A DNA stretch of 64,000 nt from an uncultured virus (IMG/VR IMGVR_UViG_3300015610_000939) (lineage: Duplodnaviria; Heunggongvirae; Uroviricota; Caudoviricetes), in IMG/VR virus record IMGVR_UViG_3300015610_000939; one strand, given 5' to 3'. Position numbers and translations under genes: made by a program. The first letter of the stretch is position 1. The number at the start of each line of letters is the position of its first letter. The notes beneath the pieces were generated by a model. That model was not told the DNA's origin. It searched no databases and worked only from the letters and a program-made list of their open reading frames with translations. Positions 18,601 to 60,257 of this stretch are shown one piece after another.

Positions 18601-18702
18601 TTCTGTTCTAATTATTCCCCCTCCTCCGCTCTTCTTGGTTATCCTCCACTGTGAGAAGAGCTCTCATTTTCCTTTACCGGAAATAGGTGCCATACTCAAG
18701 CC

Positions 18703-19754: not shown

Positions 19755-19759
19755 GGTGC

Positions 19760-35570: not shown

Positions 35571-37322
35571 CTATTCTTCGTCCCCACTCATTGGGGCTTC
35601 CTTTTCGTTGAGAATCACACTATCGCATGTGAGCATCAGCCCGACAACCGAAGAGGCATGTTCAAGTGCACATCTCGTCACTTTTACGGGGTCAATGATC
35701 CCGCCAGCAACCAAATCCTGAAACTTGCAGGTGGCTGCGTTGTATCCAAAGTGGAGCTTTCCAAGTCCTGGGAAGAAATCCTTCTGGAAGTCAGAAAGTT
35801 CACCACCTGGGGCGGTAACCTCTGCACTGTACGTGTTCATTGCTGTCTCAAGTTGGTTCGCCACAACTTCCGGCGACTTGCCGGTGTTCGAGACGATGGT
35901 GAACAGCGGAGAACGGCAAGCATTCAGGATTACGTCAATGCCAGCACCAACATCGCCCCGTTGCTCGTGGACCTTCTTGAGCTCCTTCTCAGCAATCTTT
36001 GCCGCATAGAAGAGAGCACAGCCACCGCCAGGAACAATGCCTTCCTTAACAGCAGCAATCGTCGCGTTGTGAGCGTCCTCAACCCGGTCCTTGCGTTCGA
36101 GAATCTCCGTCTCCGTAGACCCTCCGACCTTGACCACCGCCACGCCACCAGCAAGCTTTGCAAGGCGCTTGCGGTAGCGATCAATGCGGAGGTCATCCAA
36201 GGTTCCATCCTGTGCCAGAGCGGCTCGTAGGGTCCTTACACGCTCTTCCACCTTCTCCTTCAACTCAGGATCAGGCGAGCCAACAATTGTGGTAGAAGTC
36301 CTGGTAACCACAACCTTTGCTGCCAAACCAAGGTGCTCCAACTCCAAGTTCTTCAGTTGAAGAGGACTCGAAGCGTCAAGCACAGTTCCCCCGACAACAC
36401 AGGCAATGTCACCAAGGATATCCGTACGGTTGTCACCGTAGGACGGTGCCTTGACAGCGCAGCACATCAGGTTTCCCTTCAACCTGTTCACAATCAAGGT
36501 CTGAAGCGCTGGCCCCTCAACATCGTCTGCGATGATCAAGATCGACCTATCTGCATTGGCGATCTTCTCCAGGATAGGAAAGAGCTCGTCCAAGGAGGAA
36601 ATCTTTCGATTGGTTGCAAGAACCAGTGGATTCTCCAGCTCAACCGTGTTCTTCTCTGAGTTCGTCACGAAGTAAGGGGAAAGGTATCCACCGTCGAACT
36701 GCAAGCCTTCCACAACCTCAAGGATCGTAGAAGTGGACTTTCCAGGCTCGACTGTGATGATTCCATCCTCCCCAACCTTCTCGATAGCCTCAGCCAGGAG
36801 TTCACCAATATTGGTATCTCCATTAGCCGAGATGGTGCCAACGTTGACGATATCGGTTTTCGATCGTACAGGCGTTGCAAGCTGCTTCAGAGCCTTCAAA
36901 ACCTCTTCTGTGGCCAAATCCATGCCACGCTTAACCTGGACAGAGTCTCTGCCCGAGGAAATCATCTTGATTCCCTCCTTGAACATCGCATGAGCCAGAA
37001 CGGTTGCGGTTGTTGTACCGTCCCCTGCGATATCATTGGTCTTTGAGGCAACCTCCTTGATCAACTCAGCTCCCATCGACTGAAGCCTGTCCTTGAGGTT
37101 GATTGACCGAGCTACCGTAACTCCGTCCTTTGTGATCAACGGAGCTCCAACGGTAGCGTCAATCGTAACGTTGTGACCAGAAGGACCCATGGTCGAGGCA
37201 ACTGCTTTTGCAAGAATGCTGGCTCCTTCAAAGAGCTGCTTCCTTGCTTCATCGCCAAAGACCACTCTTTGGTGAATACCCTGGGTTGCTGCCAAAAGTG
37301 CTTGCTGTGTTACCTTGTTCAC
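35571..37322 (-). CDS. groEL: chaperonin GroEL
   Basis: TMGPSG, ITKDGVTVA, AGDGTTTATVL, GYLSPYF, GIVPGGG, GIIDPVKV; AGGAG SD before GTG; no GGM tail. Confidence 0.97.
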   Translation of the reverse strand: MNKVTQQALLAATQGIHQRVVFGDEARKQLFEGASILAKAVASTMGPSGHNVTIDATVGAPLITKDGVTVARSINLKDRLQSMGAELIKEVASKTNDIAGDGTTTATVLAHAMFKEGIKMISSGRDSVQVKRGMDLATEEVLKALKQLATPVRSKTDIVNVGTISANGDTNIGELLAEAIEKVGEDGIITVEPGKSTSTILEVVEGLQFDGGYLSPYFVTNSEKNTVELENPLVLATNRKISSLDELFPILEKIANADRSILIIADDVEGPALQTLIVNRLKGNLMCCAVKAPSYGDNRTDILGDIACVVGGTVLDASSPLQLKNLELEHLGLAAKVVVTRTSTTIVGSPDPELKEKVEERVRTLRAALAQDGTLDDLRIDRYRKRLAKLAGGVAVVKVGGSTETEILERKDRVEDAHNATIAAVKEGIVPGGGCALFYAAKIAEKELKKVHEQRGDVGAGIDVILNACRSPLFTIVSNTGKSPEVVANQLETAMNTYSAEVTAPGGELSDFQKDFFPGLGKLHFGYNAATCKFQDLVAGGIIDPVKVTRCALEHASSVVGLMLTCDSVILNEKEAPMSGDEE

Positions 37323-40762: not shown

Positions 40763-42874
40763 ATGGCTGCACCGCGTGATGATTCCTTTTTCAATCGCCT
40801 GACAAGGCTTTTTCGTTCTGGCCCATCTGTCCGTCGCAAGATTCGTGGCTACGACGACTCTGGCTACTACGACAAACAAGCAGTTTTGGCTGCAAGGTCA
40901 GGTTCAGGGAATGGAATGATCCCTTTCCGCAAGGGAACTTCCCACAACTCCCCCTTCTCGATGCTTGGCGGATCGGACATTATGGCCCGAATGACCCGCT
41001 ACATGGAGTATGCGGAAATGGAGTACACCCCTGTCATGTCGAAAGCCTTGGATGTTCAGGCTGACGAAGCTTGCTCTGGGGACGAGAATGGAAAGAACTT
41101 CCACATCTACTCCGACAACCCGGACATCAAGGAAGCTCTTTCTGAGCTCTTCTACGACATCCTGAACGTGGACTTCAACTTGAGGGTCTGGATCAGGAAC
41201 CTATTGAAATATGGAGACCTATTCCTCTACAACGAAGTAGCCCCAGGTATCGGCGTTGTCAATGTCATGGCCTTGAATGTCAATGAAGTGGAGCGAGACG
41301 AGGGGTATGATGCAAATGACCCCTACGCTGTCCGCTTCCGTTGGCACAAGAATGGACAGAAGGTGTTGGAGAACTGGCAGGTTACCCACTTCCGTATCCT
41401 TGGAAACGATCAGTTTGCTCCCTATGGAACTTCTGTCCTGGAGTCAGCTCGTAGGATTTGGCGTCAGTACGTGATGATGCTCGACGCAATGTTGGTTTAC
41501 CGCCTTGTTCGCTCTCCAGAGCGCAGGGTGTTCTACGTTGACGTTGGAACTGTTGCCCCAAATGACATTCCAAACTACATGAACACCATCATGTCCACCA
41601 TCAGGGGACAGACGGCAGTGGACAAGGAAACAGGCCGCCTTGATGAGAGGTTCAACCCAACAGACGTTCTTGAGGACTACATCGTCCCTGTCCGTGGAGC
41701 CAACTCTGGCACCAAGATCGACACCCTCCAAGGTGGAACCCACCAGACGGCTACAGAAGACATTGAAATCATCCAATCCCAGCTCTTTGCTGCCTTGGGT
41801 GTTCCAAAAGCCTATCTTGGATACGACGAGATGCTTTCTTCCAAGGCAACCTTGGCCCAAGAGGATATCAGGTTCTCCAGGACGATTCAAATCTACCAGA
41901 AGATCATCATTTCCGAGCTGAACAAGCTTGCAATCCTTCACCTCTACGCCAAGGGCTTCGAGGGAGAGGACTTGATTGACTTCCAGCTTCGTCTTTCCAA
42001 TCCTTCCTCTGTTGCACTTCAACAGAAGTTGGACCTCTGGAAGACAAAGATCGACATTATCGGAGCTGTTGACCAAATCGAAACTCGATTCCTTCCAATG
42101 GAATGGCTCTACAAGGAAATTCTTGGTTTTACCGAGGACGAAGTCAAGGGACTCAGGGAGAAGCTCAAGGCAGACAAACGCTTTGCCGTCGAGCTTGATT
42201 CTATTGTTGACGCCGACACCACGGGAGAGAATACCGTTGATCCATTCGACGGTTCGACCTATCTGCCCCCAGGTGGCTCCCAAACAGCGGACACGTCACT
42301 TCCTTCACCTCCAGTGAATTCTTCCCTTCCTGGGGCTCCTGCTTCGCCCAATGCCCCACCTGACGCTGCCCCTTCCACTGTCTCCCCTGTGGCTTTGAAG
42401 CTGAGCCAGGGAGAGGTTCCAATCAAGGTTAATCCTCAAGTCAGGATGGACAAGAGGAATGCGAGAAGAAGGAAGAGCGATCTTGCCATCCAAGCGGATC
42501 AACCAGACTTCGCTGCGATGTTGAATCCTGGGAAGAACACTTCTCTCCGGGATCTCTATGACAAGAACTTTTTGGACGATCCTCTCTCGGAGCAAATCAG
42601 GAAGGATCTTCGTGGCGTCAGGAGCAACCTCTCCAGGGATGTGAAGAAGATGCTGGAGCGCTTTGACCAAGTTAAGGGGCGCAAGAAGATGCTCGCAGAA
42701 AAGGAAGCCCCAGCTCCAACTGATGATGTGCTCGTTGATATTATCGGAGAAGAGGAGCTCGACCTCGGCGATATTCTGGTCGAAGAAACAGCCTCAACCA
42801 ATCAAAATGTCCCAACTTTCGCTGTGTTGGCAGAGCTTGGTTTGGAAATCAAGGAGCCCGAATCAGAGACTTGA
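40763..42874 (+). CDS. portal protein (T4 gp20-like)
   Basis: YGDLF, HFR, YGTSVLE, DAMLVYRLVRSPERRVFYVDVG, LEDYIVPVRG, TLQGG, ALGVPKAYL, DIRFSRTI. Confidence 0.95.
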   Translation: MAAPRDDSFFNRLTRLFRSGPSVRRKIRGYDDSGYYDKQAVLAARSGSGNGMIPFRKGTSHNSPFSMLGGSDIMARMTRYMEYAEMEYTPVMSKALDVQADEACSGDENGKNFHIYSDNPDIKEALSELFYDILNVDFNLRVWIRNLLKYGDLFLYNEVAPGIGVVNVMALNVNEVERDEGYDANDPYAVRFRWHKNGQKVLENWQVTHFRILGNDQFAPYGTSVLESARRIWRQYVMMLDAMLVYRLVRSPERRVFYVDVGTVAPNDIPNYMNTIMSTIRGQTAVDKETGRLDERFNPTDVLEDYIVPVRGANSGTKIDTLQGGTHQTATEDIEIIQSQLFAALGVPKAYLGYDEMLSSKATLAQEDIRFSRTIQIYQKIIISELNKLAILHLYAKGFEGEDLIDFQLRLSNPSSVALQQKLDLWKTKIDIIGAVDQIETRFLPMEWLYKEILGFTEDEVKGLREKLKADKRFAVELDSIVDADTTGENTVDPFDGSTYLPPGGSQTADTSLPSPPVNSSLPGAPASPNAPPDAAPSTVSPVALKLSQGEVPIKVNPQVRMDKRNARRRKSDLAIQADQPDFAAMLNPGKNTSLRDLYDKNFLDDPLSEQIRKDLRGVRSNLSRDVKKMLERFDQVKGRKKMLAEKEAPAPTDDVLVDIIGEEELDLGDILVEETASTNQNVPTFAVLAELGLEIKEPESET

Positions 42875-42961: not shown

Positions 42962-43840
42962 ATGTTGAAGTCCACAACCCTGAAGCACAATAAGAAGCGA
43001 AATGTCGGCCTCCTGAACGAGTTCTTTGCTCGTTATATCGCCAAGGCTATCCTTGAGAAGAGGGACGGTGACATTGAGCAAGCGAAAGCCCTCTATGCCC
43101 GTCACTTCCAAAAGGGCACAGAGCTGAGCCGGGAGCTTCGGTTGTTCACGAACCTTTTTGAGACCCGTGTGGAGTCGAGGGAGGCAGCAAATTCTTTGCT
43201 TGCCCAGGTAAAGGAAGCTTGCAAGCTTCAATCCCAAGCTAGGATTGACCTGGAGAAGACAGCTCTTCTCCACGAAATCAATCAAACCTTCGGGGAGTGC
43301 AACTTCTTTGATCAGGAGATTGTTGAATATCGTGATTGCGCGACCATTCAAGTCCTCTTGAACCACTGGCGCGGGAGGATTGTTACGGAGAACCTCAGTG
43401 AGGCAGCTCAACTGGAAGACAAGCTCCTGAACAGGTTGGTTAGCAAGCTTCCTGTCGCTGAGAGCAAGTCCTTGAACATGCAGGAATCTGAGGTTGACGG
43501 GCTGGTTGTGAACCTGATGATTCAGAAGTTCAACCAAAGATTCGGCACCATGCTCAACGAGGAGCAGAAGAAGCTTCTTCGCCTCTATGTCTTCTCAAAG
43601 GACAATGTTTCCTCTAAGGAAGAGTTGATCAAGCTCCTGGAGGGTTTGAAAGAGAAGTCCTCTAAGTTGTTGGAGACAGCTATCCTCCGGGACAAGGACG
43701 CTCAGAAGGTAAAGACCAAGCTGACCGAGGTAAAGCAGATGCTCCAGGAAACCTACCAGGACACCAGCAATCTCGACGATTCTCTGGTCACCTTCTACAT
43801 GTCAATTTCCAAGCTCAACGAGGAGCTCTCCAATGAGTAA
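42962..43840 (+). CDS. hypothetical head-module protein
   Basis: KHNKKRN N-terminus; between portal and protease; AAGGA SD; CTAATTA at 42908. Confidence 0.7.
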   Translation: MLKSTTLKHNKKRNVGLLNEFFARYIAKAILEKRDGDIEQAKALYARHFQKGTELSRELRLFTNLFETRVESREAANSLLAQVKEACKLQSQARIDLEKTALLHEINQTFGECNFFDQEIVEYRDCATIQVLLNHWRGRIVTENLSEAAQLEDKLLNRLVSKLPVAESKSLNMQESEVDGLVVNLMIQKFNQRFGTMLNEEQKKLLRLYVFSKDNVSSKEELIKLLEGLKEKSSKLLETAILRDKDAQKVKTKLTEVKQMLQETYQDTSNLDDSLVTFYMSISKLNEELSNE

Positions 43841-44456
43841 GCTGCTTTTGCAAGAATTCGCCCAGTTCGATTACAAGAAACCAACTGACGAGGAAGGCAA
43901 GCCTCGCCTTTCCAAGTACGGGAACATCCTTGTCAGGGGTGTTATCCAGAGAGCCGACGCCCTCAACCAAAATGGTAGGGTTTACCCAAAGCACATCCTG
44001 GAAAGAGAAGTGCGCAACTACATGACCATGGTCAAGGAGCGTAGGGCAACTGGAGAACTGGACCACGCTGATTCACCATCCGTGAACCTTCAGAATGCTT
44101 CCCACCTTATCACGGATATTTGGTGGGAGGGGAATGACCTCTGGGGAGAGATTGAGGTTCTTGAGGACCTTGATCAAGGAAGAAACCTCAAGGGGCTCCT
44201 GAAGAATGACGTGAAGGTTGGAATCTCTTCCCGAGCTCTTGGATCGGTTGAGAAGCTCCCCGATGTCGATATCGTTCAAGAAGACCTTTACCTTGTTTGC
44301 TGGGACATTGTCTCTGAGCCGTCCACCCATGGGGCATTCATGATGAAGGAAGCCAAGAGCTTCTCTGACGATGAGGTTCGCCGAATCATGAGCAAATCGG
44401 ACCGTATTGATCGTGCAGCCAACGAAATTCTTGCTTTGAAGGGTAAGCGCAAATGA
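43833..44456 (+). CDS. prohead protease (T4 gp21-like)
   Basis: NQNGRVYP, GELDH, SH, GISSRALGS, DIVSEPS. Confidence 0.95.
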   Translation: MSKLLLQEFAQFDYKKPTDEEGKPRLSKYGNILVRGVIQRADALNQNGRVYPKHILEREVRNYMTMVKERRATGELDHADSPSVNLQNASHLITDIWWEGNDLWGEIEVLEDLDQGRNLKGLLKNDVKVGISSRALGSVEKLPDVDIVQEDLYLVCWDIVSEPSTHGAFMMKEAKSFSDDEVRRIMSKSDRIDRAANEILALKGKRK

Positions 44457-47638: not shown

Positions 47639-49552
47639 ATGAAAACTTTCTCACTTTCGCAATTGGCAGAGGGCGTGAACCGCCGTTCGCTTGGAGCCGA
47701 CGCTCCAAGGCTCCTGTCCAAGTGGTCTGCAACAGGACTTCTTGAGGGTCTTTCCGGTGTCCAGAAGGAGAGCCTCTCTCGCCTTCTTGAGAACCAGACT
47801 GCACAGCTCATCCAGGAGTCCAACGCCATCTCGACAGGTGGCGCTGCTCTGACTTCCTCGGGTCAGATTGCAGGCTTCTCGAACGTTGCCTTCCCTATCG
47901 TTCGTAGGGTCTTTGCTGGCCTCGTCGCCAACGAAGTGGTTTCGGTTCAGCCAATGAGCCTTCCTTCGGGACTGCTCTTCTACTTGGATTACACCTACGG
48001 CTCGAACGTTGGTGGTGATGCAGGTCTGAGCCTTTCGACCTCGGCAACGGCTGACACCTACAAGAGGGCAACCTCGGTGTACGGTCTTCCAACTGGAGCC
48101 TCGATTCGTTCGGGTGCAACTCCTGCTGGTGGCCAGTACGACCTCGTGGGAACAGGATTCTCCAAGGTTCATAAGGGTGCTTTGAACATCGCCGGCTCGA
48201 CTGACTCGGTTGGTTACTGGCTCTCGGGCTCGACCTGGACCACAGGAACCACGGCAGTTGTCGCTTCGTCGGCTGACTGGACAGGCTACAACGCCCGCTA
48301 CGCTGGTTTCCGTTCGGACATTGAGAATGGTCTCACCGATGGCAGCTTCGATTTCTGCTTCATGTTCGTCTCGGCCTCCGAGCTTACAGGCAAGATTTCG
48401 GGACTTGATCTCAACTCGCTTGACCAAATTGCAATCACCGGCTTCGGCTCGGCAGGCAACTCGGTCACAGCTTGGGGTGATAGCTTCCAGGGTGGTCTTG
48501 GCGTCCTCAACCTCCGTGCCTTGAACAGGCGTGGAGACTGGAACGCATCGACGGGTCTCTTCACACCAAACCCACTTGGCGGAAGCCACGTTATGTTTGT
48601 GCTGAAGATCGCCAACGCAGGAACGGCTCCACAGCCTGCTGGCACAGCTTCGACCTACATCTCTGGTTCGGCAGCAATCAGCGACGCACTTTCGGTTGGT
48701 TCCGAGGGCACGACCCTTACGGTTCCATCGTTCGAAACGGACTTCGCAATTGACTCCTCGCCAAGGATTCCAGAAGTTGACATCAAGATCGAAGGCGTGT
48801 CGGTTACGGCTACAACCCGTAAGCTCCGCGCTCGCTGGTCGCCAGAGATGGCACAGGACTTGACAGCTTTCTACTCCATCGACGTGGAAGTGGAGCTGAC
48901 CAACATCCTCAGCGAAATGATCACGCTCGACATCGACCGTGAAATCTTGAACGATCTCCTCACACAAGCCAGCGCAGCAAACCTGTACTGGTCGCGTGCT
49001 CCAGGACGTATCGTCAACAAGCAGACGGGTGCAGAGGCTCTTCACAACAACGTTCTTGCTCCAGGACCACAGTTCTTCGGAAATGTGCGTGAGTGGTACG
49101 AGACTTTGATGGAGACCATCACGGATGCAGCCAACACGATCCACAGGAAGACACTCCGTGGAAGCGGAAACTTCATCATCACCTCGCCAGACGTGGCAAC
49201 GATCTTCGAGCACCTTGTGGCCTACAAGCCAGCATACAAGGTTGACTCGGACGGCCAAGTCAAGGAGAGCATGACGATCGGTGCCGAGGCAATCGGTACG
49301 CTGAACAACAGGTACGTGGTCTACAAGGACCCATACTTCCCAACGAACAAGATTCTTTTGGGATTGAAGGGTAACACCTTCCTGGAGTCCGGCTACATCT
49401 ACGCTCCATACGTTCCTTTGATCCTCACTCCTGTGATCTACGCACAGGAAGACTTCACTCCTCGCAAGGGTGTGATGACACGCTACGGCAAGAAGATGGT
49501 TCGCGCCGACTTCTACGCTACGGTTACGGTTCTCGATATGAACCTCATCTGA
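47639..49552 (+). CDS. major capsid protein (T4 gp23-like)
   Basis: KWSATGLLEGL, LLENQ, FPIVRRVF, VSVQPMSLPSGLLFYLD, TRKLRARWSPEMAQDL, IDREIL, YAPYVPL, MTRYG. Confidence 0.97.
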   Translation: MKTFSLSQLAEGVNRRSLGADAPRLLSKWSATGLLEGLSGVQKESLSRLLENQTAQLIQESNAISTGGAALTSSGQIAGFSNVAFPIVRRVFAGLVANEVVSVQPMSLPSGLLFYLDYTYGSNVGGDAGLSLSTSATADTYKRATSVYGLPTGASIRSGATPAGGQYDLVGTGFSKVHKGALNIAGSTDSVGYWLSGSTWTTGTTAVVASSADWTGYNARYAGFRSDIENGLTDGSFDFCFMFVSASELTGKISGLDLNSLDQIAITGFGSAGNSVTAWGDSFQGGLGVLNLRALNRRGDWNASTGLFTPNPLGGSHVMFVLKIANAGTAPQPAGTASTYISGSAAISDALSVGSEGTTLTVPSFETDFAIDSSPRIPEVDIKIEGVSVTATTRKLRARWSPEMAQDLTAFYSIDVEVELTNILSEMITLDIDREILNDLLTQASAANLYWSRAPGRIVNKQTGAEALHNNVLAPGPQFFGNVREWYETLMETITDAANTIHRKTLRGSGNFIITSPDVATIFEHLVAYKPAYKVDSDGQVKESMTIGAEAIGTLNNRYVVYKDPYFPTNKILLGLKGNTFLESGYIYAPYVPLILTPVIYAQEDFTPRKGVMTRYGKKMVRADFYATVTVLDMNLI

Positions 49553-49630
49553 TCCTTCGGGATCTTAGCTCCCGGTAGAGGGAGCGTCAAGACCCTCGGT
49601 GCTTTTTGCATCGGGGGTTTTGTGCATTTT
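49551..49630 (+). terminator. three consecutive hairpins ending in an intrinsic terminator after the MCP gene
   Basis: GATCC-TTCG-GGATC; GCTCCC-N6-GGGAGC; AAGACCCTCGGTGC-TTTTT-GCATCGGGGGTTTT followed by a T-rich tract. Confidence 0.75.
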
Positions 49631-49664
49631 GGCCTCTCTCTTACAGCCTTTCCGTGAGGAAAAG

Positions 49665-50459
49665 ATGGAAAAGAGAATTATCGGACCAGACGGAAGAGAG
49701 TTTTGCACCCCTGCTTGTTGCGGAGGACCGCCAGCCAAGAAGCCAAGTTCGGAACTTGTGGTTCCACCACTTGAAGCAGCCCTTGCTGCCTGGAGAGCGG
49801 CCCCGAATGTGGCGAAGCTGGAAGCAGCTTTCAAGGCTGGGGGGTTCACCGATCTGAAAGATCACCGCAAGGTGGTTACCGACAGGAGAACGTATCACTG
49901 GTCCATGGCTCCTGGTAGGTACGTTAACAAGGACACGGGTGCAGTGGCCTTGAAGAAGGTCGCGAAAATGGTTGAATTGTCTGTTGCACCACTTCCAGGT
50001 GTGAGTCCAAAGACAGAGGTCGTTGTCCGTCAAGAACAAGAAGTGATGGAGCCAATCATGGAGTTCACAGGAACCATGGAGGATTGGTTTGGAACACTTC
50101 AAGAGCTCATTATTCAGGTTTCCAACGATATGTTCCGCAGGAACCTCTTTACAGCAAATATCGTGGAAACGTCGCCATTCATTACCGACAGTCGCTTGTT
50201 CGGTAGGGAATACGCCAAAGCTTGGGAGCAGGTGAGTCCGTCGAGCTGGATTGCTTCGAACAACCTGTTCGATCGGTTCACTCTCTTGCGCACCAGCACG
50301 CATCCAGAGAACAGGATCAACGTGAAGTTGGTTTCCAGGTTCAAGGCAGAATTTGGGGACATCCACAAGGAAGTGCCTGAGCTCGACATCGTGGCTTTGG
50401 ACCAACCTGCTTTGTTGGCAGACTACGAAATTATCGTTTTGGACATGCCTGTGCTCTAG
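49665..50459 (+). CDS. truncated MCP paralog 1 (A-domain-like part only)
   Basis: YHWSMAPGRYVNKDTGA, FTGTMEDWFGTL, NIVETSP, IIVLDMPVL match C-terminal MCP segments; GAGG SD. Confidence 0.75.
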   Translation: MEKRIIGPDGREFCTPACCGGPPAKKPSSELVVPPLEAALAAWRAAPNVAKLEAAFKAGGFTDLKDHRKVVTDRRTYHWSMAPGRYVNKDTGAVALKKVAKMVELSVAPLPGVSPKTEVVVRQEQEVMEPIMEFTGTMEDWFGTLQELIIQVSNDMFRRNLFTANIVETSPFITDSRLFGREYAKAWEQVSPSSWIASNNLFDRFTLLRTSTHPENRINVKLVSRFKAEFGDIHKEVPELDIVALDQPALLADYEIIVLDMPVL

Positions 50460-50488
50460 AGCCATATTCCTCTGGAATAGAGGAATCA

Positions 50489-51154
50489 ATGACAGAAGAG
50501 CTGACAAATCCATACAGAACTGTTCCAACCGCACCAATCGCACCTCCAACCCCAGTTGTGGAGGACAAGAATGTGCGCTTCTGGTCCAGAGCTCCAGGCA
50601 AGTTCGTCAACAAGTTGACGGGAGCTGATTCTGCCCTTAACAGGGGAGTGGCGACCGCTGGCCCAATGTTTGCTGGGTCTGTCCGTGAGTGGTACGAAAC
50701 CCTCGTTGATGTGATCGACGACGCAGCGTCGACGGTGAGGCAGCGTACGAATCAAATGCCTCAAATTCTGGAGTGTACCCCGGATTTTGCAACTATCCTT
50801 GAGCACACTGTTGCGTATCGTTCTGTGTACTACGCAAACAATAACAGCCCAAAGGAGACAATGAAGGGTGCCTTTGGTGAGCTTGTTGGTGTGCTGAATG
50901 GGAAGTTCTACGTTCACGTAAGTTCCGAACTTCCTGCCTCGGTGGCGAAGCTTGTACTCGTGACCGACAAAAAGGTTTCACGCACCAAGTTTACAGACCA
51001 GAAAAAGCTTGAGGTCAAGGTTGAAGGAAAGGTTGTTCCAAGTCTCTTCGAGGATGACTGGAAGGTTGGCGCTGCTTTCACTGAGGAGCCTCTTCCCTGT
51101 CTCACTCGTCTTGATGGAATCACCATCAAGATCCTCGACATGAACCTCCTCTAA
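50489..51154 (+). CDS. truncated MCP paralog 2 (A-domain-like part only)
   Basis: FWSRAPGKFVNKLTGA, GPMFAGSVREWYETL, TPDFATILEHTVAY, VGVLNGKFYV, KILDMNLL match the MCP. Confidence 0.85.
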   Translation: MTEELTNPYRTVPTAPIAPPTPVVEDKNVRFWSRAPGKFVNKLTGADSALNRGVATAGPMFAGSVREWYETLVDVIDDAASTVRQRTNQMPQILECTPDFATILEHTVAYRSVYYANNNSPKETMKGAFGELVGVLNGKFYVHVSSELPASVAKLVLVTDKKVSRTKFTDQKKLEVKVEGKVVPSLFEDDWKVGAAFTEEPLPCLTRLDGITIKILDMNLL

Positions 51155-51212
51155 AGCCTTCTGAACGCCTTCTAGCGTGGTACAACCTAATTACCACGGA
51201 AAGGCGTATGAA

Positions 51213-51821
51213 ATGAAGGTAAAAGAGCTGAAGAAGATGGTGATGGAGAGCGTCACCAGGACAGTGAAGGAAGCTGGATACGACCAATATGGGGAAGGCG
51301 TATCGCAAGCAACGGACCCAAGCTGGTTTGATACCTTGCTTGCTCCCGATGAACCTTCACCTGAAATGAAGAACACTCCAGAAGCCAGGGTTCTGGTTGA
51401 TGCAGCCAAAAAGCTCTTGAAGAAGGCTGGAAAGATTGACAAGGAAGTCATGAACCAAGTCTCCGCTGAGTTGGAGCAGAACTTCGACCTGCCTGACGGG
51501 GTAAGCTGGGAAGTGGTCCATGCCGCCTTTGAGGAGCTCAAGAGTGACATGCTTTCCGAGGCACCACCAGAGGGATGGCACGGCACTGTGAGGGCTATGA
51601 AGACCCACGGACACACCGGTAAGGGTGGAGAGATCGACAACCCATATGCCTTGGCGTACTACATGGCAAACAAGGGAGATGAACCTCACTACAAGGAGCA
51701 GCCAACTTCCAAGAAGGGCACTCCTGAAAAGAAGAAGAAGTTCATGAGTACGGAAGCCTTCGTTGATATGGTCCGTGAGATGATCAAAGAGGAGCTTGCA
51801 GCTCTTCGCAAAGGAAAGTGA
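51213..51821 (+). CDS. hypothetical protein with N-terminal leader
   Basis: MKVKELKKMVMESVTRTVKE; CTAATTA at 51187. Confidence 0.7.
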   Translation: MKVKELKKMVMESVTRTVKEAGYDQYGEGVSQATDPSWFDTLLAPDEPSPEMKNTPEARVLVDAAKKLLKKAGKIDKEVMNQVSAELEQNFDLPDGVSWEVVHAAFEELKSDMLSEAPPEGWHGTVRAMKTHGHTGKGGEIDNPYALAYYMANKGDEPHYKEQPTSKKGTPEKKKKFMSTEAFVDMVREMIKEELAALRKGK

Positions 51822-51824
51822 ACC

Positions 51825-52199
51825 ATGGCAAAAGAGTTCATGAGCATGGAAGCGTTCGAGAAGCTGGTAATGGAGTACATCCGTGAGGCTGTGAGGGAGG
51901 AGATGCTCAAGGACCTTTCCAAGCTCTCGGAGGTCACCCAGGGCACTCTTTCTACTGGGACTTCCACTACGTCCATGGGCACCTCTGGAACGACTGGAAC
52001 GACTGGTACGAAGTCGGGAGTGGGAACGAAACCAGGGAATGACGACCCGGCAAACAACGTGATGGTTCCCGGAACCAACATGAATATCAACCAAGGTCTC
52101 CAGGCTGCTGCAAAGGAAACGAACTTCAAGAAGAAGGCGGACCTCTTGAACAAGATGAGCACCCAAATTCAGGGAATGAAGGGCCTCGTTATCAAATAA
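51825..52199 (+). CDS. hypothetical protein with N-terminal leader
   Basis: MEYIREAVREEMLKDLSKLSE followed by a Thr/Gly-rich tract. Confidence 0.65.
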   Translation: MAKEFMSMEAFEKLVMEYIREAVREEMLKDLSKLSEVTQGTLSTGTSTTSMGTSGTTGTTGTKSGVGTKPGNDDPANNVMVPGTNMNINQGLQAAAKETNFKKKADLLNKMSTQIQGMKGLVIK

Positions 52200-52235
52200 T
52201 GTGACGTTTGCCAGCCCTACTTAACGGGTAGGCTC

Positions 52236-53495
52236 ATGGCAACGTTCGTAACCACTCCTCGACCAACATCGTTTGGGCTATTCGACTCAGACCCAGCATT
52301 CCAGAGGGATGCTGATTCCATGGTGACTTACGTCAAGCGCAAGGCCGGTGAGACCACGCTTTCGACTGAGTTGTCGAAGAAGGAAATTTGGTCTTGCTTT
52401 GAGGAGGCGACCTGGAGATTCAACTCTTGGGTTATCGAATACCAGACAAAGAGCAACCTTGCCAGCCTTCTTGGAACTCCAACGGGTTCTTGGGATTCCA
52501 CGACCAACCAGAACACCATCAACCTCACGAACGTCTACGTTGCTCCGAACCTTGAGTTCCTTGATAGGTTGGCTGAGCCTTATGCCAATATCATTGGCTT
52601 CGGTTCCACCCAAAACTCCTTTTCCGGTTCGATTGACATGGTAACCGGGAAGCAAGATTACGACCTTTTCACTGATCTGAAGGACGAGGCTGGCAATCCT
52701 CTGTACGGTATGCTTTCCGGCTCTGGTGGAAAGATGCGTGTCTTTGAGGTGTTCCACTTCGCTCCAATCCAATACCTCTTCAACTCCTCGTTCGGTACGA
52801 ACTTTGGAAACGTAGCAGGTGTTGGTATCCCAATGGGAGCCTTCAACACGGATACCCGTTTCCACATCCTTCCACTCTACGAGGATGTTCTTCGTGCTGG
52901 TCAGCTCAAGCTGGCAAGCAAGGTGAGAAGATCCCATTACACCTACAAGATTTCCGGCAGGAATATCCGTTTCTTTCCCGTTCCAACCTCCATCATCCCA
53001 GGGGTGAACAATAAGGTTTGGATTCGAGTGGGCTTCCAAGCCCAGGTGAATGGAGCCTTCATCGACCTTGGTGTCAGCAGCTCACTCAGTGGAACAGCAG
53101 GACTTGCAGGTTCCTCTGGTTTCTCTGGAGTGGCAGCAGGAGCTTCCAATCCCGCCAACATCCCATTCGGCCTTGTGAACTACGCAACCCTCAACCAATG
53201 GGCAAAGAACTGGATCGCCAGGATGACCTTTGCTCTCGCTCTGGAGATCATGGGTCGTGTCCGTCGTAAGGTCAAGCGCATCCCCATTCCAAACGCCGAC
53301 CTGGAACTGGACGGTTCTGAGCTCGTCCAGGAAGCCAGGGAAGACCAAACCAAGCTCATCGAGGAACTCAAGGGTCAGCTTGAGTCCCTGTCCTACGACA
53401 AGCTCCAAGAGATGGAAGCTCAGAAGGCCGAGAACCTGATGAAGCAACTTTCCTTCCTTCCCATGCCTCCAACCCACACGATCAAGAGGTTCTAG
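52236..53495 (+). CDS. neck protein (T4 gp13-like)
   Basis: TELSKKEIWSCFEEA...ALALEIMGRVRRK...IP...LDGSELVQEA; position after head genes; CTACTTA at 52217. Confidence 0.75.
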   Translation: MATFVTTPRPTSFGLFDSDPAFQRDADSMVTYVKRKAGETTLSTELSKKEIWSCFEEATWRFNSWVIEYQTKSNLASLLGTPTGSWDSTTNQNTINLTNVYVAPNLEFLDRLAEPYANIIGFGSTQNSFSGSIDMVTGKQDYDLFTDLKDEAGNPLYGMLSGSGGKMRVFEVFHFAPIQYLFNSSFGTNFGNVAGVGIPMGAFNTDTRFHILPLYEDVLRAGQLKLASKVRRSHYTYKISGRNIRFFPVPTSIIPGVNNKVWIRVGFQAQVNGAFIDLGVSSSLSGTAGLAGSSGFSGVAAGASNPANIPFGLVNYATLNQWAKNWIARMTFALALEIMGRVRRKVKRIPIPNADLELDGSELVQEAREDQTKLIEELKGQLESLSYDKLQEMEAQKAENLMKQLSFLPMPPTHTIKRF

Positions 53496-53535: not shown

Positions 53536-54546
53536 ATGAAACTAGTTTACAATGAACACTCTCTCAAGCCGGGTATCTACAAGATCCTCAATACCCATAC
53601 CAACAGGACATACATTGGCCAAGCCAAAGAATTGAAAGCTCGTTGGAAAGGTCATTGCAGGTCTCTTCTTGCCGGAAGGCATCAAAACCGTTTTCTCCAA
53701 GCTGACTTCAACAAGTGCCGGGAGGCGTTGGGCCATGATGACTTTCTTGAGTTTCATGTCCTGGAGGTGTTGGAAGGCTCCACTAAGGAGGAACGAAACA
53801 AACGGGAGGAGGAGTACATTGGCAACATTTACCATGCTCTTCTTCCCGATGGCTCCCGTGTTTGCTACAACTTCAAGGAGAAAACAGAAGCGTTGGAACG
53901 TAGCTGCTATTCCAATACTCCCGAGGAGACCAAGGCGAAGAAAAGCGATTCGATGAAGAAGGTTTGGGAGAATGAGGTATATCGGTCTACTCTTGCAGAA
54001 AAGGCAAAGAGGTTCTGGAACACAGAAGAGGGTAAAGCAACGGCCTCCAAGCGTGCTCAAATTATTTGGAATGATCCCGAGCGCCAAGAAGCCATGTCTC
54101 TTCGGATGAAGAATCAGATGAGCAACCCAGAAGTCAAAGAAGCTACAGTCAAGTCTTTGAATGCTGAGGAGTCAGTTAGAAAAAGAGCGGACACATATCG
54201 AAACAGACTTACCTCGGAGCCTGAGTTCAAAGCGAAGATGCAGGCTTGTGGACGAAAGAATATTGCCAAAAGAAACAGCTCTCAGCCTGTAAAAACGTAT
54301 GGTTCAGTGCAGGCACCAGACGGAACTGTTTACCACAACATTTCCCATATTCCTACTTTTGCTAAAACGCACGGGTTGCAAAAGCAGAACCTCTATTCGC
54401 TTCTATCCGGCAAGATCAAATCTCACAAGGGATGGATTCTATTTAAGGAAAATGTCCTCCTGAAACCCCTTCTCATAGTGGAGGATAACCAGGAAGAGGA
54501 GAGAGAGGGGGATATAGGAGAAATAAGATGCCGCGTCTGTTCGTAA
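53536..54546 (+). mobile_element. free-standing GIY-YIG homing endonuclease
   Basis: GIYKILNTHTNRTYIGQA...RWKGH...LQ...E...E...YN; repeated helical W-containing motifs; inserted between neck genes. Confidence 0.85.
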
Positions 54547-55184
54547 CCCAAAAAGAGATCGACTACTTCAATGACCTCGGCAAGGAGTTCATCAAGGACA
54601 TTGTCGGCCAAGCCATCATTTACTGGCCCGTCTCGACCCTGAAGACGAAGATCCACCCTGTGTACAATGAGGCCGTGAAGAAAATCTTCGAAAACCCAAT
54701 CAAGGTTGATGCCCTGGCTGGACAGCCCCAGTGGGAGACGAAGATGACCACCTTTGGACCTGAGCAACAGAACACACTTGAGGTGTTCCTCCAGGCCAGA
54801 GACTTGGCTCAGAAGGGTCTTGAGCTTTCGGAGGGAGACTTCTTCACTTATGGCGATAACGCCTACGAGATTGTCTCTTACCTGAACATGAACAACTTCT
54901 TTGGGCAGGTTGAGCACGATGTTGCCTACAAGGTTATTGGGAAGCTTGCCCGTCCAGGAGAGTTCAATCCTCAGAAGTTCTTCAAGCCAGTTGAAGAGAC
55001 GACCCCGCCAACTCCATTTGAGCAACAGCGGGGAATTGCAGAGACCAGTGACGGGCCAACAGGTGACATCCGTGATGTTCGCGAACGTCTTGGAGATGAT
55101 CTTCCTGCCCCTGCCCTTGGAGATGGTCCAAGGCGAGTTGATGTAGACCCAACCCTGAAAGCGAATACACTGTACGATGAATAA
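54528..55184 (+). CDS. neck/head-closure protein (T4 gp14-like)
   Basis: DIVGQAIIYW...VYNEAVKK...EGDFFTYG; GGAG SD; position. Confidence 0.7.
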   Translation: MPRLFVTQKEIDYFNDLGKEFIKDIVGQAIIYWPVSTLKTKIHPVYNEAVKKIFENPIKVDALAGQPQWETKMTTFGPEQQNTLEVFLQARDLAQKGLELSEGDFFTYGDNAYEIVSYLNMNNFFGQVEHDVAYKVIGKLARPGEFNPQKFFKPVEETTPPTPFEQQRGIAETSDGPTGDIRDVRERLGDDLPAPALGDGPRRVDVDPTLKANTLYDE

Positions 55185-55875
55185 CCTGAAATCTGTTCTG
55201 GACTTCTGGCTTCTTGAGTCTCAAGAGCTTGAAGAGGCAAAGTTCAACCCAGAGATGTTCGACAAGATGGACAGCCCAGAGCAAATGATCCTTACCGTTG
55301 CAGGTAAGCTTCCATTGCTCGGAGAGGGTTCGTCTCGTGCTGCCTTTCTGCTTGACAGTAAGAGGGCCTTGAAAATTGCCAAGAACGAGAAGGGTCTTGC
55401 TCAGAACAGAGCAGAGTACGAACTAGCTCAGAATCCCGGTGTGGCTCCTTTGGTTACGAGGATTTACAAGATGGGACAAAACGACGCCTGGATGGTGTCG
55501 GAGCTGGTACGTCCGCTCAAAAATCAAAAGGAGTTCGAACAACTCACCCAGGTTCCTTGGAGCTTCATGTTCAAGTTCCTGGATCACTACAGCTCGCTGG
55601 GTGATGTTGGCCGAGCATTCGATGTAACAGTAAAGGCCCAAATTGAAGCTGATAAGCGTGCACGGCATCCAATGCCAGGAATGTCAGTTCGGGGAATTGA
55701 ATATCTTCCATTCATCGGAAGACTCTTCACTGCTCTGGCAAATCGCCCTGACTTGATCCCTGCTGACTTGCAGCTTCTAGACCACTGGGGCAAGACACCG
55801 GACCAGCGTGTGGTGCTGCTTGATTCCGGGTACACCGAAGATGTCTATGCTTCCCACTATGCTACTCGGGCATAA
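55177..55875 (+). CDS. protein-kinase-like protein
   Basis: LGEGSSRAAF Gly loop, ALKIA, QNRAE, DLQLLDHWG, VLLDSG. Confidence 0.65.
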   Translation: MNNLKSVLDFWLLESQELEEAKFNPEMFDKMDSPEQMILTVAGKLPLLGEGSSRAAFLLDSKRALKIAKNEKGLAQNRAEYELAQNPGVAPLVTRIYKMGQNDAWMVSELVRPLKNQKEFEQLTQVPWSFMFKFLDHYSSLGDVGRAFDVTVKAQIEADKRARHPMPGMSVRGIEYLPFIGRLFTALANRPDLIPADLQLLDHWGKTPDQRVVLLDSGYTEDVYASHYATRA

Positions 55876-57206: not shown

Positions 57207-60200
57207 ATGAGCGACCAAATTTTCAAGAGCCCAGGGTTCTACGACCGTGAAATCGACCTCTCTGCCAGGACGGTTGAGCCTTCTGGTATTCCGGCTGCAA
57301 TCGTTGGTACTTCGCAAAAGGGACCAGCTTTTGTGCCAGTTACCCTTGGTTCTTTTGCTGACTTTCAGAGCAAGTTCGGCGACTTGAACCCAAAGTTTGC
57401 TGCCCCATACGCAGTGCAGAAGTGGCTTGACAACCGCTTTGCTGCCACATTTGTTCGTGTTCTTGGTGGTGGAGCCAACTCCACCCAGACCGAGTTCGAC
57501 AACACCAGGACAAAGGGAATTGTCAAGAATGCAGGTTTCTTGATCAGCGGTTCTGCTGTGGGAGCTGGAGACCTTCGTTACAAGGGTTCGACGCAGTTTA
57601 TCGTTGCCAAGCACGTTGTTACGGGAACTGAGGTCTACGGACTTCCAATGTTCTCGGACAACTCGTCCTTCTTCACGACTGGTTCGTCTACGGACGTTTA
57701 CTTGGTTCGTGGAATGGTCTTCACGGCTCACGATACCCGCTTGATGATCATGTCTGCCTCGGACACCTTCTCTGGGGCCCTGGACGACTTTGCAACGCTC
57801 GATTCGGCTTCGACCAGCGCGACCTACAAGAAGTTCAAGCTTGTCCTCTCCTCGTCCTCTGGTTCGTCTTTTGGAAACACTGACGGATACGCTGGCGTGA
57901 GAATCATGACAGCTTCGTTGAACCCAACGAGCCCAGACTACATTGCCAAGATCCTGAACACCGATCCCGAGAAGTTCGAGACAGAGCGCCACGTCCTTTA
58001 CTGCGACTTTGCAGTGGACGACGAGATTGCTACGGTTTCTACTGCATCCAACTGCGTTGGTGTGGTTTCTGGCTCCTCGAACACCTCGGCAAACTCTGGG
58101 GACACTTCCCTGACTCTCAGGGATGCCTTTGGACGCTTTGACACAAGGTTCACGACACCAAAGACGACTTGGTTCATCTCTCAACCTTTCGGGGCAACAG
58201 AGTACAACCTCTTCTACTTTGAGTCCCTGGACGACGGTGCTTACGCCAACCAAAAATACAAGATTTCGATTGCCAACCTGAGAGCTTCGAGCGATCCGAA
58301 GTACCTCTTTGGAACCTTCACTGTCCTTGTTCGTGTCTTTGACGACACGGACATTGAGCCAATGGTGATCGAGCAGTACAACAACGTCAGCCTTGACCCT
58401 GACGCTGACAACTACATCGCCAAGGTCATTGGTGATATCAAGGTTTCCTACGCCTTCGATACCCTCGACCCAGAGGACCGTCGTTTGGTGAAGGAAGGCC
58501 AGAACCCAAACCGCTCGAAGCTCATTCGTGTGGTTATGTCTGACCAAGTCACCAGGAAGACAATTCCAGGAAATGCCCTTCCGTTCGGATTCCGTGGTTT
58601 CGGCTTCCTGAACACATCCCATACTGGAAACGATGGTTTGCCGGTCGGTGGAATCTCCGGTTCCTTCATCCGTCTCGCAGCTTCCGGCACGACAGATGAC
58701 CGTCTGCTCTCGGCAGTGCTTCCTCCACTTCCTTTCCGCTTCAAGGTGACAAGGGGTGAGGTTTCTGCTTCTGCTGGCTTTGAGGGTCAACCTGGAGCCA
58801 ACGAGGTTGTGGACTCCAGGTACTTCTGGGGTGTCAAGGGCGAGCGCAATGTGAACGTCCTGAACCCAAACATCTCGAACGAGCCAAACGCCTTGGTGGG
58901 TGCTTTGACGAAGTTCCATGGAATTGAGAAGCTTGACGTGTTGGTGACCGGCTCCAAGGCTGACACCTTCAACGACAACAAGTTCACGCTTGCCCGTGTG
59001 TGCCTTTCCAACATCACTCTTGCTGATGTTACGGCTTCGGCAGAGACGCACATGAAGGAAACGGCTTACATCCGTAACGGAACGGTTGATCCATCGGATT
59101 ACACCGTTACCGACACAAATGGAGCTCGTGTGACCTTGGCAACCCTTTTGATGAAGGGTTCCACGGCTGCTGTGTTCAACCAGTTCTCGGATTACGCCAA
59201 GTTCACGACTGTGATGGCTGGTGGATTTGATGGAGTCAACATCCTGGACAAGAACGCTGCTCGTTTGAACGACAAGGCTACCTCTACAGAGAGTGGCGGT
59301 GGTGCAAATGGCAGCTTCACGTCCCCAGGATTCTCCTCGAACCTTACGGGAACAGGAAAGACCAACGCCTCGATCTTCTCCTACCAGACAGCAGTGAAGA
59401 TCATCACAGACCCTTTGATCTCCCAGCACAACATTCTGGTGATCCCAGGAATCCGTGAGCCATTCGTCACCGACGATGCTGCTACGAAGACGGCTGAGCA
59501 CACCCTGTCCATGTACATCATGGATATTCCTTACTACGACTTCAATGGAACCCGCATCTTCGATGGAGACAGCGGTCGTTACACTGATTCGGACGAAACC
59601 AAGGATGTGTTCGATGCTCGTGCAATCGACAACGATGCAGTAACCGCAGCCTTCCCAAACACAACGATTGAGGACACAACAAATGGCAGAAATGTCATTG
59701 TTCCAGCCAGCGTTGTGACCTTGTCGGCTTTCGGTTACAACGATAGGGTTGGCTACCCATGGTTTGCTCCTGCCGGATTCAACCGCGCTGCTCTTGGCTT
59801 TGTCAAGGGAACCACAGCAAGGCTAAACCAACCAGAGCGTGATCGTTTGATTGCGGCAAGAATCAACCCAATCGTGAAGTACCCACAAGCTGGTTTCGTG
59901 ATTCCAAGCCAGATGACCCTCAAGCAAGGAAAGTCCTCTTTGACCTCTACGAATGTCAAGAGAATGATCCTTGAGGCCAAGAGGAGCATCGTTGAAATCG
60001 GAAACAAGCTCATGTTCGAGAACATGACAGTCTCCCTCCGCACGGAGCTTGTGAAGCAGTACAACGCTGTTTTGTCGAGCATCCAGGCAAAGGGTGGACT
60101 CCAGGCTTTCGTTGTGATCTGCGACGACAGCAACAACACCCAGGTCGATCTCGACTCCAACCAGATGAACGTTCAAATCCGCTTGCTCCCAACCCTTGCA

Positions 60201-60257
60201 GTTGAGTTCATTGCGCTTGACTTCATCGTTTCGCCAAGTGGCGTTCAGTTCGTCTGA
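57207..60257 (+). CDS. tail sheath protein 1
   Basis: FKSPGFYDREIDLS, GPAFVP, PWFAPAGFNR, RINPI, NVKRM, AVEFIALDF. Confidence 0.93.
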   Translation: MSDQIFKSPGFYDREIDLSARTVEPSGIPAAIVGTSQKGPAFVPVTLGSFADFQSKFGDLNPKFAAPYAVQKWLDNRFAATFVRVLGGGANSTQTEFDNTRTKGIVKNAGFLISGSAVGAGDLRYKGSTQFIVAKHVVTGTEVYGLPMFSDNSSFFTTGSSTDVYLVRGMVFTAHDTRLMIMSASDTFSGALDDFATLDSASTSATYKKFKLVLSSSSGSSFGNTDGYAGVRIMTASLNPTSPDYIAKILNTDPEKFETERHVLYCDFAVDDEIATVSTASNCVGVVSGSSNTSANSGDTSLTLRDAFGRFDTRFTTPKTTWFISQPFGATEYNLFYFESLDDGAYANQKYKISIANLRASSDPKYLFGTFTVLVRVFDDTDIEPMVIEQYNNVSLDPDADNYIAKVIGDIKVSYAFDTLDPEDRRLVKEGQNPNRSKLIRVVMSDQVTRKTIPGNALPFGFRGFGFLNTSHTGNDGLPVGGISGSFIRLAASGTTDDRLLSAVLPPLPFRFKVTRGEVSASAGFEGQPGANEVVDSRYFWGVKGERNVNVLNPNISNEPNALVGALTKFHGIEKLDVLVTGSKADTFNDNKFTLARVCLSNITLADVTASAETHMKETAYIRNGTVDPSDYTVTDTNGARVTLATLLMKGSTAAVFNQFSDYAKFTTVMAGGFDGVNILDKNAARLNDKATSTESGGGANGSFTSPGFSSNLTGTGKTNASIFSYQTAVKIITDPLISQHNILVIPGIREPFVTDDAATKTAEHTLSMYIMDIPYYDFNGTRIFDGDSGRYTDSDETKDVFDARAIDNDAVTAAFPNTTIEDTTNGRNVIVPASVVTLSAFGYNDRVGYPWFAPAGFNRAALGFVKGTTARLNQPERDRLIAARINPIVKYPQAGFVIPSQMTLKQGKSSLTSTNVKRMILEAKRSIVEIGNKLMFENMTVSLRTELVKQYNAVLSSIQAKGGLQAFVVICDDSNNTQVDLDSNQMNVQIRLLPTLAVEFIALDFIVSPSGVQFV

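Follow-up and report, generated by a model that had tools for sequence, protein, structure and literature searches.

Two capsid-related genes downstream of the major capsid protein gene

The DNA analysed here, a stretch of 64,000 nucleotides from the uncultured virus IMGVR_UViG_3300015610_000939 (the window), carries a T4-like head module in which the gene coding for the major capsid protein (MCP) is followed by two small open reading frames, ORF1 and ORF2 (Table 1). The MCP is of the gp23 type, as indicated by the family calls from Pfam (Gp23, 1.7e-74) and PHROG (major head protein, 4.4e-69) and by a phmmer match to T4 gp23 (E 1.7e-26). ORF1 starts with an ATG at 49665, preceded by GAGGAAAAG, and the same start is used in six database clusters of 234-266 aa; an alternative GTG start at 49599 falls within the terminator-like hairpin that lies between the MCP and ORF1 genes. 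This hairpin, a putative terminator found as a consensus match only, has 15 pairs, 8 of them G-C. The start of ORF2 is an ATG at 50489, preceded by AGGA. A previous sequence-only reading of this DNA had noted Shine-Dalgarno sites for the two genes, and its coordinates for the pair, 49665-51154, are correct. The N-terminal region of ORF1 is Cys-rich (CTPACCGG); a beta-hairpin is inserted at residues ~96-130, and another hairpin lies at the C-terminus.

The BLASTP alignments showed that both ORFs match the C-terminal third of the MCP. Residues 31-149 of ORF2 aligned with MCP 450-568 with 55 identical positions out of 122 (45%, E 5e-28), and ORF1 aligned with 27% identity over 166 columns, with a 27-residue insertion (E 1e-10). 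ORF1 and ORF2 matched each other with an E of 5e-7, and ORF1 matched the profile A1 with an E of 1.4e-30. The resemblance of both ORFs to the C-terminal part of the MCP is real and far beyond chance, and the motifs quoted for it in the sequence-only reading are all found in the translations. The corresponding part of the MCP, residues 450-637, comprises a loop YWSRAPGRIVNKQTG, a helix FFGNVREWYETLMETITD, a strand and helix NFIITSPDVATIFEHL and a C-terminal TVLDMNLI. Everything N-terminal of MCP residue ~445 is absent from both ORFs, as had been claimed. The YAPYVPL...MTRYG segment had also been described as replaced by unrelated sequence. A profile of this segment (MCP 578-626) gave no match at E <= 1e-3 to P0004, a relative of ORF2 with 94% identity, so that the segment is replaced at the sequence level, yet AlphaFold still predicts long beta-hairpins there. 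No family was found for ORF1 or ORF2 in Pfam (E <= 1), nor in PHROGs. We call such stand-alone proteins minis; the Gp23 profile (PF07068) matched five of 42 aligned minis at E <= 0.01. ORF1 and ORF2 are not members of Gp23 by profile; their C-terminal homology is nevertheless shown through the neighbouring MCP by BLASTP.

Table 1. Coordinates of the head module, ORF1, ORF2 and associated features in the window
Feature	Position	Strand	Remarks
Portal	40763-42874		T4-like head module of the window
Prohead protease	43833-44456		T4-like head module
Acidic ORF of 725 aa	45427-47604		Scaffold position; no family match
MCP, 637 aa	47639-49552	+	gp23 type; parent fold of the minis
MCP part resembled by the minis (residues 450-637)	48986-49552	+	BLASTP; profile A1 covers MCP 444-637
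Terminator-like hairpin followed by a T-run	49588-49622	+	Between the MCP stop codon and the ORF1 start; consensus scan
ORF1, 264 aa	49665-50459	+	Divergent A-domain mini
ORF2, 221 aa	50489-51154	+	Canonical A-domain mini with a C-terminal hairpin insert
Variable accessory slot	49553-52235	+	From the MCP gene to the head-tail adaptor-like gene; ORF1, ORF2 and two further ORFs
Head-tail adaptor-like gene	52236-53495

Predicted structures of ORF1 and ORF2

In the phmmer alignment, residues 355-617 of the MCP correspond to residues 225-478 of T4 gp23. ORF1 and ORF2 begin right after the MCP stretch SPEMAQDLTAFYSIDVEVELTNILSEMITLDIDREILNDLL, just before residue 450, and we take the gp23 segment aligned to this stretch to be the P-domain strand and spine helix of the T4 structures. 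AlphaFold2 (AF2) was run on each ORF with its family alignment, and the models had a predicted local distance difference test (pLDDT) of 80.3 and a predicted TM-score (pTM) of 0.73 for ORF2, and of 78.1 and 0.67 for ORF1. Comparison with VIA-align placed residues 17-218 of the ORF2 model on residues 301-521 of the T4 gp23 chain (6uzc), with a Z of 11.1 and a root-mean-square deviation (rmsd) of 3.3 A over 129 residues. The best match of the ORF1 model was the capsid protein of the jumbo phage S6 (Z 10.4, rmsd 2.7 A, 111 residues), and its match to T4 gp23 gave a Z of 10.3. Foldseek against the PDB also gave T4 gp23 as the top match of ORF2 (E 4.5e-4, probability 1.00), and the ESM Atlas returned capsid-like or unnamed clusters only; a search of the same atlas with the N-terminal extension of the mini P0130 gave no named fold. 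The matches listed for both models were capsid, encapsulin or capsid-like proteins, aligned through their C-terminal parts. Prediction of each ORF alone, a check proposed by the sequence-only reading, thus led to HK97-fold capsid proteins and not to unrelated folds.

Both models exhibit a helix, a strand and a helix, the A-domain core, followed by strands. A long C-terminal beta-hairpin is predicted in both, where the MCP has its P-domain strands (block-mean pLDDT 66-94), and this hairpin is missing only from the short family members of 130-170 aa. These results show that ORF1 and ORF2 are free-standing HK97 A-domains derived from a gp23-type capsid protein. A complete HK97 fold comprises an N-arm, an E-loop, a P-domain with the spine helix and an A-domain; the alignment of the two ORFs starts at MCP 450, and they have no N-arm, E-loop, insertion domain or spine helix. 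The start of the ORFs after the gp23 spine-helix region and the match of the models to the C-terminal parts of HK97-fold capsid proteins bear out the earlier assignment of the retained part to the A-domain. Among the parts that had been considered lost, the E-loop and the spine helix are indeed absent; the P-domain is not lost as a whole, since a degenerate P-domain hairpin, predicted in ORF1 and ORF2, may survive. Given what is known of the HK97 fold, proteins devoid of N-arm, E-loop, insertion domain and spine helix would be unable to tile a shell, in agreement with the previous proposal. A complex prediction with MCP 361-637 and ORF2, both entered as alignments, returned no answer in either direction (score, 0.01; mark, 0.32).

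A large family of stand-alone A-domain proteins

The search of 5.8 billion proteins with ORF2 gave 124 hits, of which about 40 were short proteins without a Pfam domain located on long contigs; the remaining hits, on contigs of about 1 kb, were fragments of MCPs. When 1.84 billion representatives at 50% identity were searched with a profile, there were 588 matches at E <= 1e-3, 403 at <= 1e-10 and 69 at <= 1e-30. The best 150 of these 588 consisted of 126 stand-alone proteins, 14 full-length MCPs and 10 MCP fragments, the fragments being called by a match to profiles of the spine-helix or P-hairpin segments. The stand-alone representatives start with M in 125/126 cases and have a median length of 156 aa (range 102-432 aa); a profile of MCP 380-446, the spine-helix region, matched none of the 126. 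Most members are bare domains found in varied contexts: among the 130 representatives below 300 aa, fragments included, the domain is preceded by five residues or fewer in 73 and by an extension of over 60 residues in 18. The near-invariant motifs in the mini alignments are YWSRxPGKFVNKLTG, F.GTVREWYETLVETIID, PD..TILE and the C-terminal V.VLDMNII. The ORF1 subfamily is small, with the six clusters mentioned above, and has a conserved CT.ACCGG motif near the N-terminus. The minis form a large, fast-evolving and optional gene family for which no earlier description was found; the full-text literature search, which returned mostly abstracts, gave neither phage-encoded A-domain-only capsid paralogues nor capsid-paralogue decoys.

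The phage was found in wastewater and activated-sludge metagenomes, and the carrier clade consists of T4-like phages seen only in metagenomes, with near-complete relatives of 273-340 kb. Short and N-extended minis, searched against 50,697 GenBank phage records, had the MCP gene of LR756508 as their sole match. A scan of 185,579 species genomes gave six hits, all on contigs of metagenome-assembled genomes, which are uninformative on the host. Contigs from RNA libraries span ORF1 and the ORF1/ORF2 junction in one study (X15 and X16, two runs); in a second study, also with two runs (X17 and X18), coverage was limited to the scaffold and MCP genes; such libraries can contain DNA, and these contigs are at most a weak hint at transcription of the minis.

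Two members have particular architectures. P0143 (432 aa) joins a divergent and a canonical mini in a natural fusion. In the mini P0186 (246 aa), the N-terminus has an RRRGFLQK stretch and then a hydrophobic segment, resembling a twin-arginine export signal.

Selection and evolutionary history

The dN/dS ratios calculated against L002 and L003, two related loci with ORF2 91-93% identical, were 0.26-0.28 for ORF1 and 0.25-0.31 for ORF2, the MCP having a ratio of 0.09 against L002. Against the more distant L009, the amino-acid identity was 94% for the MCP, 42% for ORF1 and 54% for ORF2, with dS values of 0.44, 2.5 and 1.7 and dN/dS ratios of 0.11, 0.22 and 0.23, respectively. Ratios of 0.22-0.31 indicate that ORF1 and ORF2 are under purifying selection, and the minis evolve about 5-10 times faster than the MCP. 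The excess of silent changes in the two ORFs relative to the MCP, in the comparison with L009, suggests replacement by recombination. The two genes had been described as intact and functional-looking; they are working genes, as supported by their whole frames, their dN/dS ratios and their conservation in relatives. Neutral decay and absence from relatives had been named as signs of pseudogenised duplicates; decay was not found, yet the minis are missing from most relatives, as described below.

A tree was built with FastTree (LG+gamma, 153 profile columns) from 102 MCP segments, one of them a fragment, and 56 minis, after removal of duplicates and of hits with a coverage below 110 profile positions; L024, L030, L048 and L084-L086 have small ORFs, which were omitted as MCP fragments or re-fetched copies. 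A single branch, with a support of 0.997, parts all MCPs from all minis. The ORF1 type (support 0.985) and the ORF2 type (0.998) share a clade with other hairpin-bearing minis (0.986), and the minis are separated from one another by a mean patristic distance of 2.42, compared to 0.51 for the MCPs. This separation on one branch indicates that ORF1 and ORF2 are old members of a large, separately evolving family and not recent copies of the 3' end of the MCP gene, so that the view of the two ORFs as recent local duplicates has to be abandoned.

Distribution, copy number and location

We scanned 28 related IMG/VR records as a whole, nine of which were included as already known carriers of minis. 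The MCP alone, without any mini, was found in 18 of the 28, and these comprised a 340-kb record rated 99% complete and others rated 82%, 84% and 76% complete. Of the other 19, picked blindly as long contigs with an MCP, one (G012) had minis. The scan for further copies, which covered the window and the related records, gave a copy number of 0-2. Minis lie directly 3' of the MCP gene in the window, L009 and L029, and 2 kb (G029) or 7.5 kb (G003) downstream of it elsewhere; the pair of G012 follows the sheath and tube genes. Others are located at a distance of 50-65 kb from the MCP gene: in G020, gp32/RecA/dUTPase lie on one side and a 5'-3' exonuclease on the other, and in G003, G026 and G028 the minis are inside runs of glycosyltransferases, one of them matching Pfam GT4-conflict. 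The neighbours in the last three also include UDP-glucose dehydrogenase, UDP-galactopyranose mutase, a PD-(D/E)XK nuclease and methyltransferases.

The interval between the MCP and adaptor genes ranges from 96 nt to 7367 nt in 43 related loci and holds minis in seven of them, which come from four contigs, some contigs having been fetched twice. This variation in length and content places the window ORFs in a hypervariable cargo slot. The minis are dispensable for head assembly in this clade. Being optional cargo in such a slot argues against an essential plug or vertex role.

Two candidates were rejected and one further copy was retained. The 198-aa "mini" of L024 is the MCP C-terminus behind a frameshift: the capsid gene shifts frame near residue 454 (L024 7940-8000) and its C-terminal 198 residues appear as a separate ORF, owing either to a sequencing or assembly error or to a broken gene. 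A second mini after that of L006 (6405-6803) was unsupported, with an hhalign probability of 9%; the second copy in L190 was supported, with a probability of 89%.

The part of the capsid protein that is kept

The conservation of the MCP sequence in the minis is uneven along the 153 profile positions. At positions 1-30, the minis have the MCP-consensus residue in 59% of cases on average, for a self-conservation of the MCPs of 61%; the corresponding values are 65% and 81% at positions 31-60, and 28-35% and 77-86% at positions 61-153. The motif positions within 1-60 are retained at 80-99%, and the MCP consensus YWSRAPGKFVNK.TG ... FTGTVREWYETL.ETIID is identical to the mini consensus. The A-domain is therefore kept in its first loop (WSRxPGKFVNKxTG) and its first helix (F.GTVREWYETLVETIID), and drifts elsewhere. 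In the alignments, polar residues (R, E, E, T, E, T, D) are conserved as a stripe on the helix, next to its hydrophobic face, and R, K and K are conserved in the loop; the stripe and the loop residues would be surface-exposed. The motif is invariant in the clade MCPs, which are 51-94% identical to the window MCP. The minis are selected to keep one sub-surface of the MCP.

Other genes of the window and of related records

The two further ORFs of the accessory slot, 3' of the minis (51177-51821, 214 aa, and 51825-52199, 124 aa), had no family match; they are 80-98% identical in L002 and L009, and weaker matches were found in L023 and L029. A homing-endonuclease-like gene (PHROG 314/7168) lies at 53536-54546, between the adaptor-like gene and the next structural genes, and an HNH endonuclease gene is located further upstream (30084-30716). 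Homing-type elements were also found near the minis in L192, with the Pfam domains GIY-YIG and NUMOD3. Proteins of the phrog_4301 family recur near minis, with one copy in the window (55177-55875), one directly 3' of the mini in L029 (8694-9374) and three tandem copies beside the L190 pair (6565-8496).

Two tandem genes of the tail-sheath family (57207-60257, 1016 aa, and 60326-63325, 999 aa; PHROG 23, E 1.8e-43 and 4.8e-51) look like the duplicated sheath of a contractile-tailed giant phage. An ORF of 1071 aa (21473-24688) matches an SbcD-like family at residues 1-390 and an SbcC-like family at residues 333-1056, and appears to be a fused nuclease and ATPase. The window also carries a GroEL-type chaperonin gene on the minus strand (35574-37322; PHROG 5725, E 9.7e-145). 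GroEL is present in 15 of the 28 related records, among them all records that are at least 76% complete, with or without minis; it looks like a core gene of the clade, and a link between the minis and the phage GroEL was rejected because its carriage is independent of them. The GroEL match is broken into pieces inside open frames of 896-964 aa in G012 (139336-141858) and G013 (18623-21250), which points to a possible insertion, for instance an intein. The T4 late-promoter motif TATAAATA had no match in the window, and sigma-70-like sites were not more frequent there than in shuffled sequences.

Discussion

The closest known kind of protein is that of the Family 4 'A-domain encapsulins' (PF08967/DUF1884; PDB 2PK8, PF0899 of Pyrococcus furiosus), which like the minis consist of a free-standing HK97 A-domain alone. 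The structure 2pk8 (94 residues) matched the ORF2 model with a Z of 7.2 and an rmsd of 2.5 A over 82 residues, and the ORF1 model with a Z of 7.0 over 88 residues. Passages of PMC8346489 describe Family 4 as cellular proteins (hyperthermophilic archaea, Rhodothermus, Rubricoccus) of about 100 aa encoded in two-gene operons with enzymes, whose function is also unknown and for which oligomers are proposed. In contrast, the minis are phage genes with a clear sequence homology to the gp23-type MCP, and their length is 102-432 aa (median 156, in the sampled set), often with extra hairpins or N-terminal domains. The bare domain of Family 4 is found in the minis of 130-170 aa, and ORF1 and ORF2 carry extra predicted hairpins. 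PF08967/DUF1884 matched neither ORF1 and ORF2 (E <= 1) nor the 42 members of A1 (E <= 0.01). The window genes are located in a phage head module and not in a two-gene enzyme operon of a cellular genome; only the N-extended subfamily lies among sugar-nucleotide enzymes, and there also on phage contigs.

T4 gp24, the vertex protein, is an MCP paralogue encoded just downstream of the MCP gene, and its structure (PDB 1YUE) matched ORF2 with a Z of 9.1 and ORF1 with a Z of 8.2. Unlike the ORFs, gp24 has the full-length HK97 fold and is a shell component, making up the pentameric vertices. ORF1 and ORF2, with 264 and 221 aa compared to 637 aa for the MCP, have lost the N-terminal two thirds, including N-arm, E-loop and spine helix, and are missing from most relatives; with regard to a vertex role, the relative rated 99% complete has no mini. 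Accessory proteins that act in trans on HK97-type assembly are known from Ccm of SaPIbov5 (PDB 7RWZ), a capsid homologue that redirects capsid size, and from the external scaffold TcaP of PLE (PDB 8G1R), which matched ORF2/ORF1 with Z of 6.0/5.8 and 7.3/7.0, respectively. Both are satellite-encoded and not phage-encoded, and the minis give no sign of capsid-size redirection. Ccm keeps the whole HK97 fold.

Our preferred reading, which is tentative and to which we give a probability of about 0.38, is that the minis may be soluble mimics of the capsomer-forming face of the capsid protein, acting as decoys for host sensors of that face. The conserved helix would be part of the face that joins capsid subunits into pentamers and hexamers, and by this location the minis would mimic that face of the unassembled capsid protein. 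In passages of PMC8346489, the two main A-domain helices are given as the main inter-subunit interface of a facet. Host immune sensors of this face would be the likeliest target, which a mini could bind as a decoy or competing ligand; a sensor occupied by a mini, devoid of the rest of the MCP, would leave abortive infection untriggered as the real MCP accumulates, and the canonical and the divergent copy of a tandem pair may act together. It is possible, although doubtful, that truncated A-domain decoys would blind STAND NTPases of the Avs7/8/10 type and CapRel-like sensors that detect the capsomer-forming face of the unassembled MCP. Among the functions that the sequence-only reading had listed, a decoy would be the best fit to the new data. 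This reading is favoured by the patchy, optional distribution, the fast evolution under purifying selection, the variable location and the multiple copies; some of the neighbourhoods are early-looking or of conflict type. DSAD1 is not known to be a paralogue of the protein sensed by DSR2. It is a precedent for a phage protein that counters a virion-protein sensor, the tail-tube sensor DSR2, according to the abstract of PMC11087589; no decoy built from a domain of the sensed protein itself was found described in the full-text search, which gave mostly abstracts.

Several points weigh against the decoy reading. The window minis lie in the late head operon right after the MCP gene, a position typical of structural or assembly proteins. 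Region-wise dN/dS, with small substitution counts, gave no region above 1 and thus no positive selection. No match to ORF1 or ORF2 was found by tblastn in the 50,697 GenBank phage records, so that no cultured relative in that set carries a mini, and no host or defence gene is known for the carrier phages. We know of no capsid-paralogue decoys so far, and a sensor-binding fragment could trigger the sensor instead of blocking it. The loop and helix were assigned to the inter-subunit face by analogy, from the literature on other HK97 proteins.

In the main rival explanation, the minis are capsid-assembly modulators or minor or decoration capsid proteins that bind MCP subunits or capsomers through homotypic A-domain contacts; they would cap capsomers, act as their chaperones or set the timing of their formation, or else occupy the capsomer centres, outside or within the shell. 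This would suit the late-operon position in the window, the head-module location right next to the MCP gene that the window shares with L009 and L029, and the pair that follows sheath and tube genes. The retained part is the capsomer-forming helix and loop, canonical and divergent copies occur as pairs (window, G012), the natural fusion P0143 suggests that copies associate with one another, and decoration proteins such as T4 Hoc and Soc are also optional in phages. However, the minis are missing from most relatives despite MCPs 51-94% identical with an invariant motif, several copies lie 50-65 kb away in replication or sugar-metabolism regions, and they evolve much faster than the presumed partner, which makes this explanation rather unlikely. 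The sugar-metabolism neighbourhoods would fit an oligomeric enzyme scaffold like Family 4, with rings or facets binding neighbour enzymes, mainly in the N-extended subfamily: minis of 232-264 aa lie in operon-like runs with UDP-galactopyranose mutase, UDP-glucose dehydrogenase and glycosyltransferases, with abutting or overlapping frames, and the fold resembles PF0899 (2pk8, 82 of its 94 residues in the ORF2 comparison). Enzyme binding is proposed for A-domain encapsulins in passages of PMC8346489. Such a scaffold is nevertheless improbable for the family, as enzyme genes do not flank ORF1 and ORF2, the majority of the minis are bare domains whose contexts vary, Z values near 7 fall in a range described as common by the tool, and no mini matched PF08967 at the thresholds used.

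The accessory, mobile and fast-evolving distribution, the retained capsomer-forming motif and the homing endonuclease genes close by in the window and in L192, consistent with inter-phage traffic, could also point to a weapon against co-infecting related phages, in which the truncated A-domain would enter or cap rival capsomers and poison head assembly. The motif is invariant across the MCP clade and shared by the MCP of the carrier itself, so that the poison would strike the carrier, and no immunity determinant is evident; we consider a weapon quite improbable. Finally, ORF1 and ORF2 sit where T4 has its vertex gene 24, after gene 23, and Pfam and PHROGs are silent on both, as might be expected if both were functionless and in decay, left over from a gp24-like vertex paralogue or from an MCP gene duplicated in part. 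All relatives seen have unbroken frames, and the dN/dS of 0.22-0.31, the 126 diverse stand-alone clusters with near-invariant motifs, the single branch between minis and MCPs and the confident AF2 models contradict a pseudogene reading, which leaves remnants extremely improbable.

Stand-alone HK97 A-domains were previously known only as cellular Family 4 encapsulins, and the phage set is much larger, visibly gp23-derived and under selection, and behaves as an arms-race gene and not as a structural one. If the minis are decoys, they would be a testable viral countermeasure to bacterial capsid sensing and the first counter-defence made from a paralogue of the sensed pattern itself, and the diversity of the family (at least 126 clusters at 50% identity) would be the trace of a capsid-recognition arms race. 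If they bind the MCP, giant T4-like heads would have assembly regulators or decorations of a new class. In both cases, the minis show, as a minimal fragment made by nature, which part of the MCP matters in trans, and they give about 130 diverse sequences for structural and binding studies.

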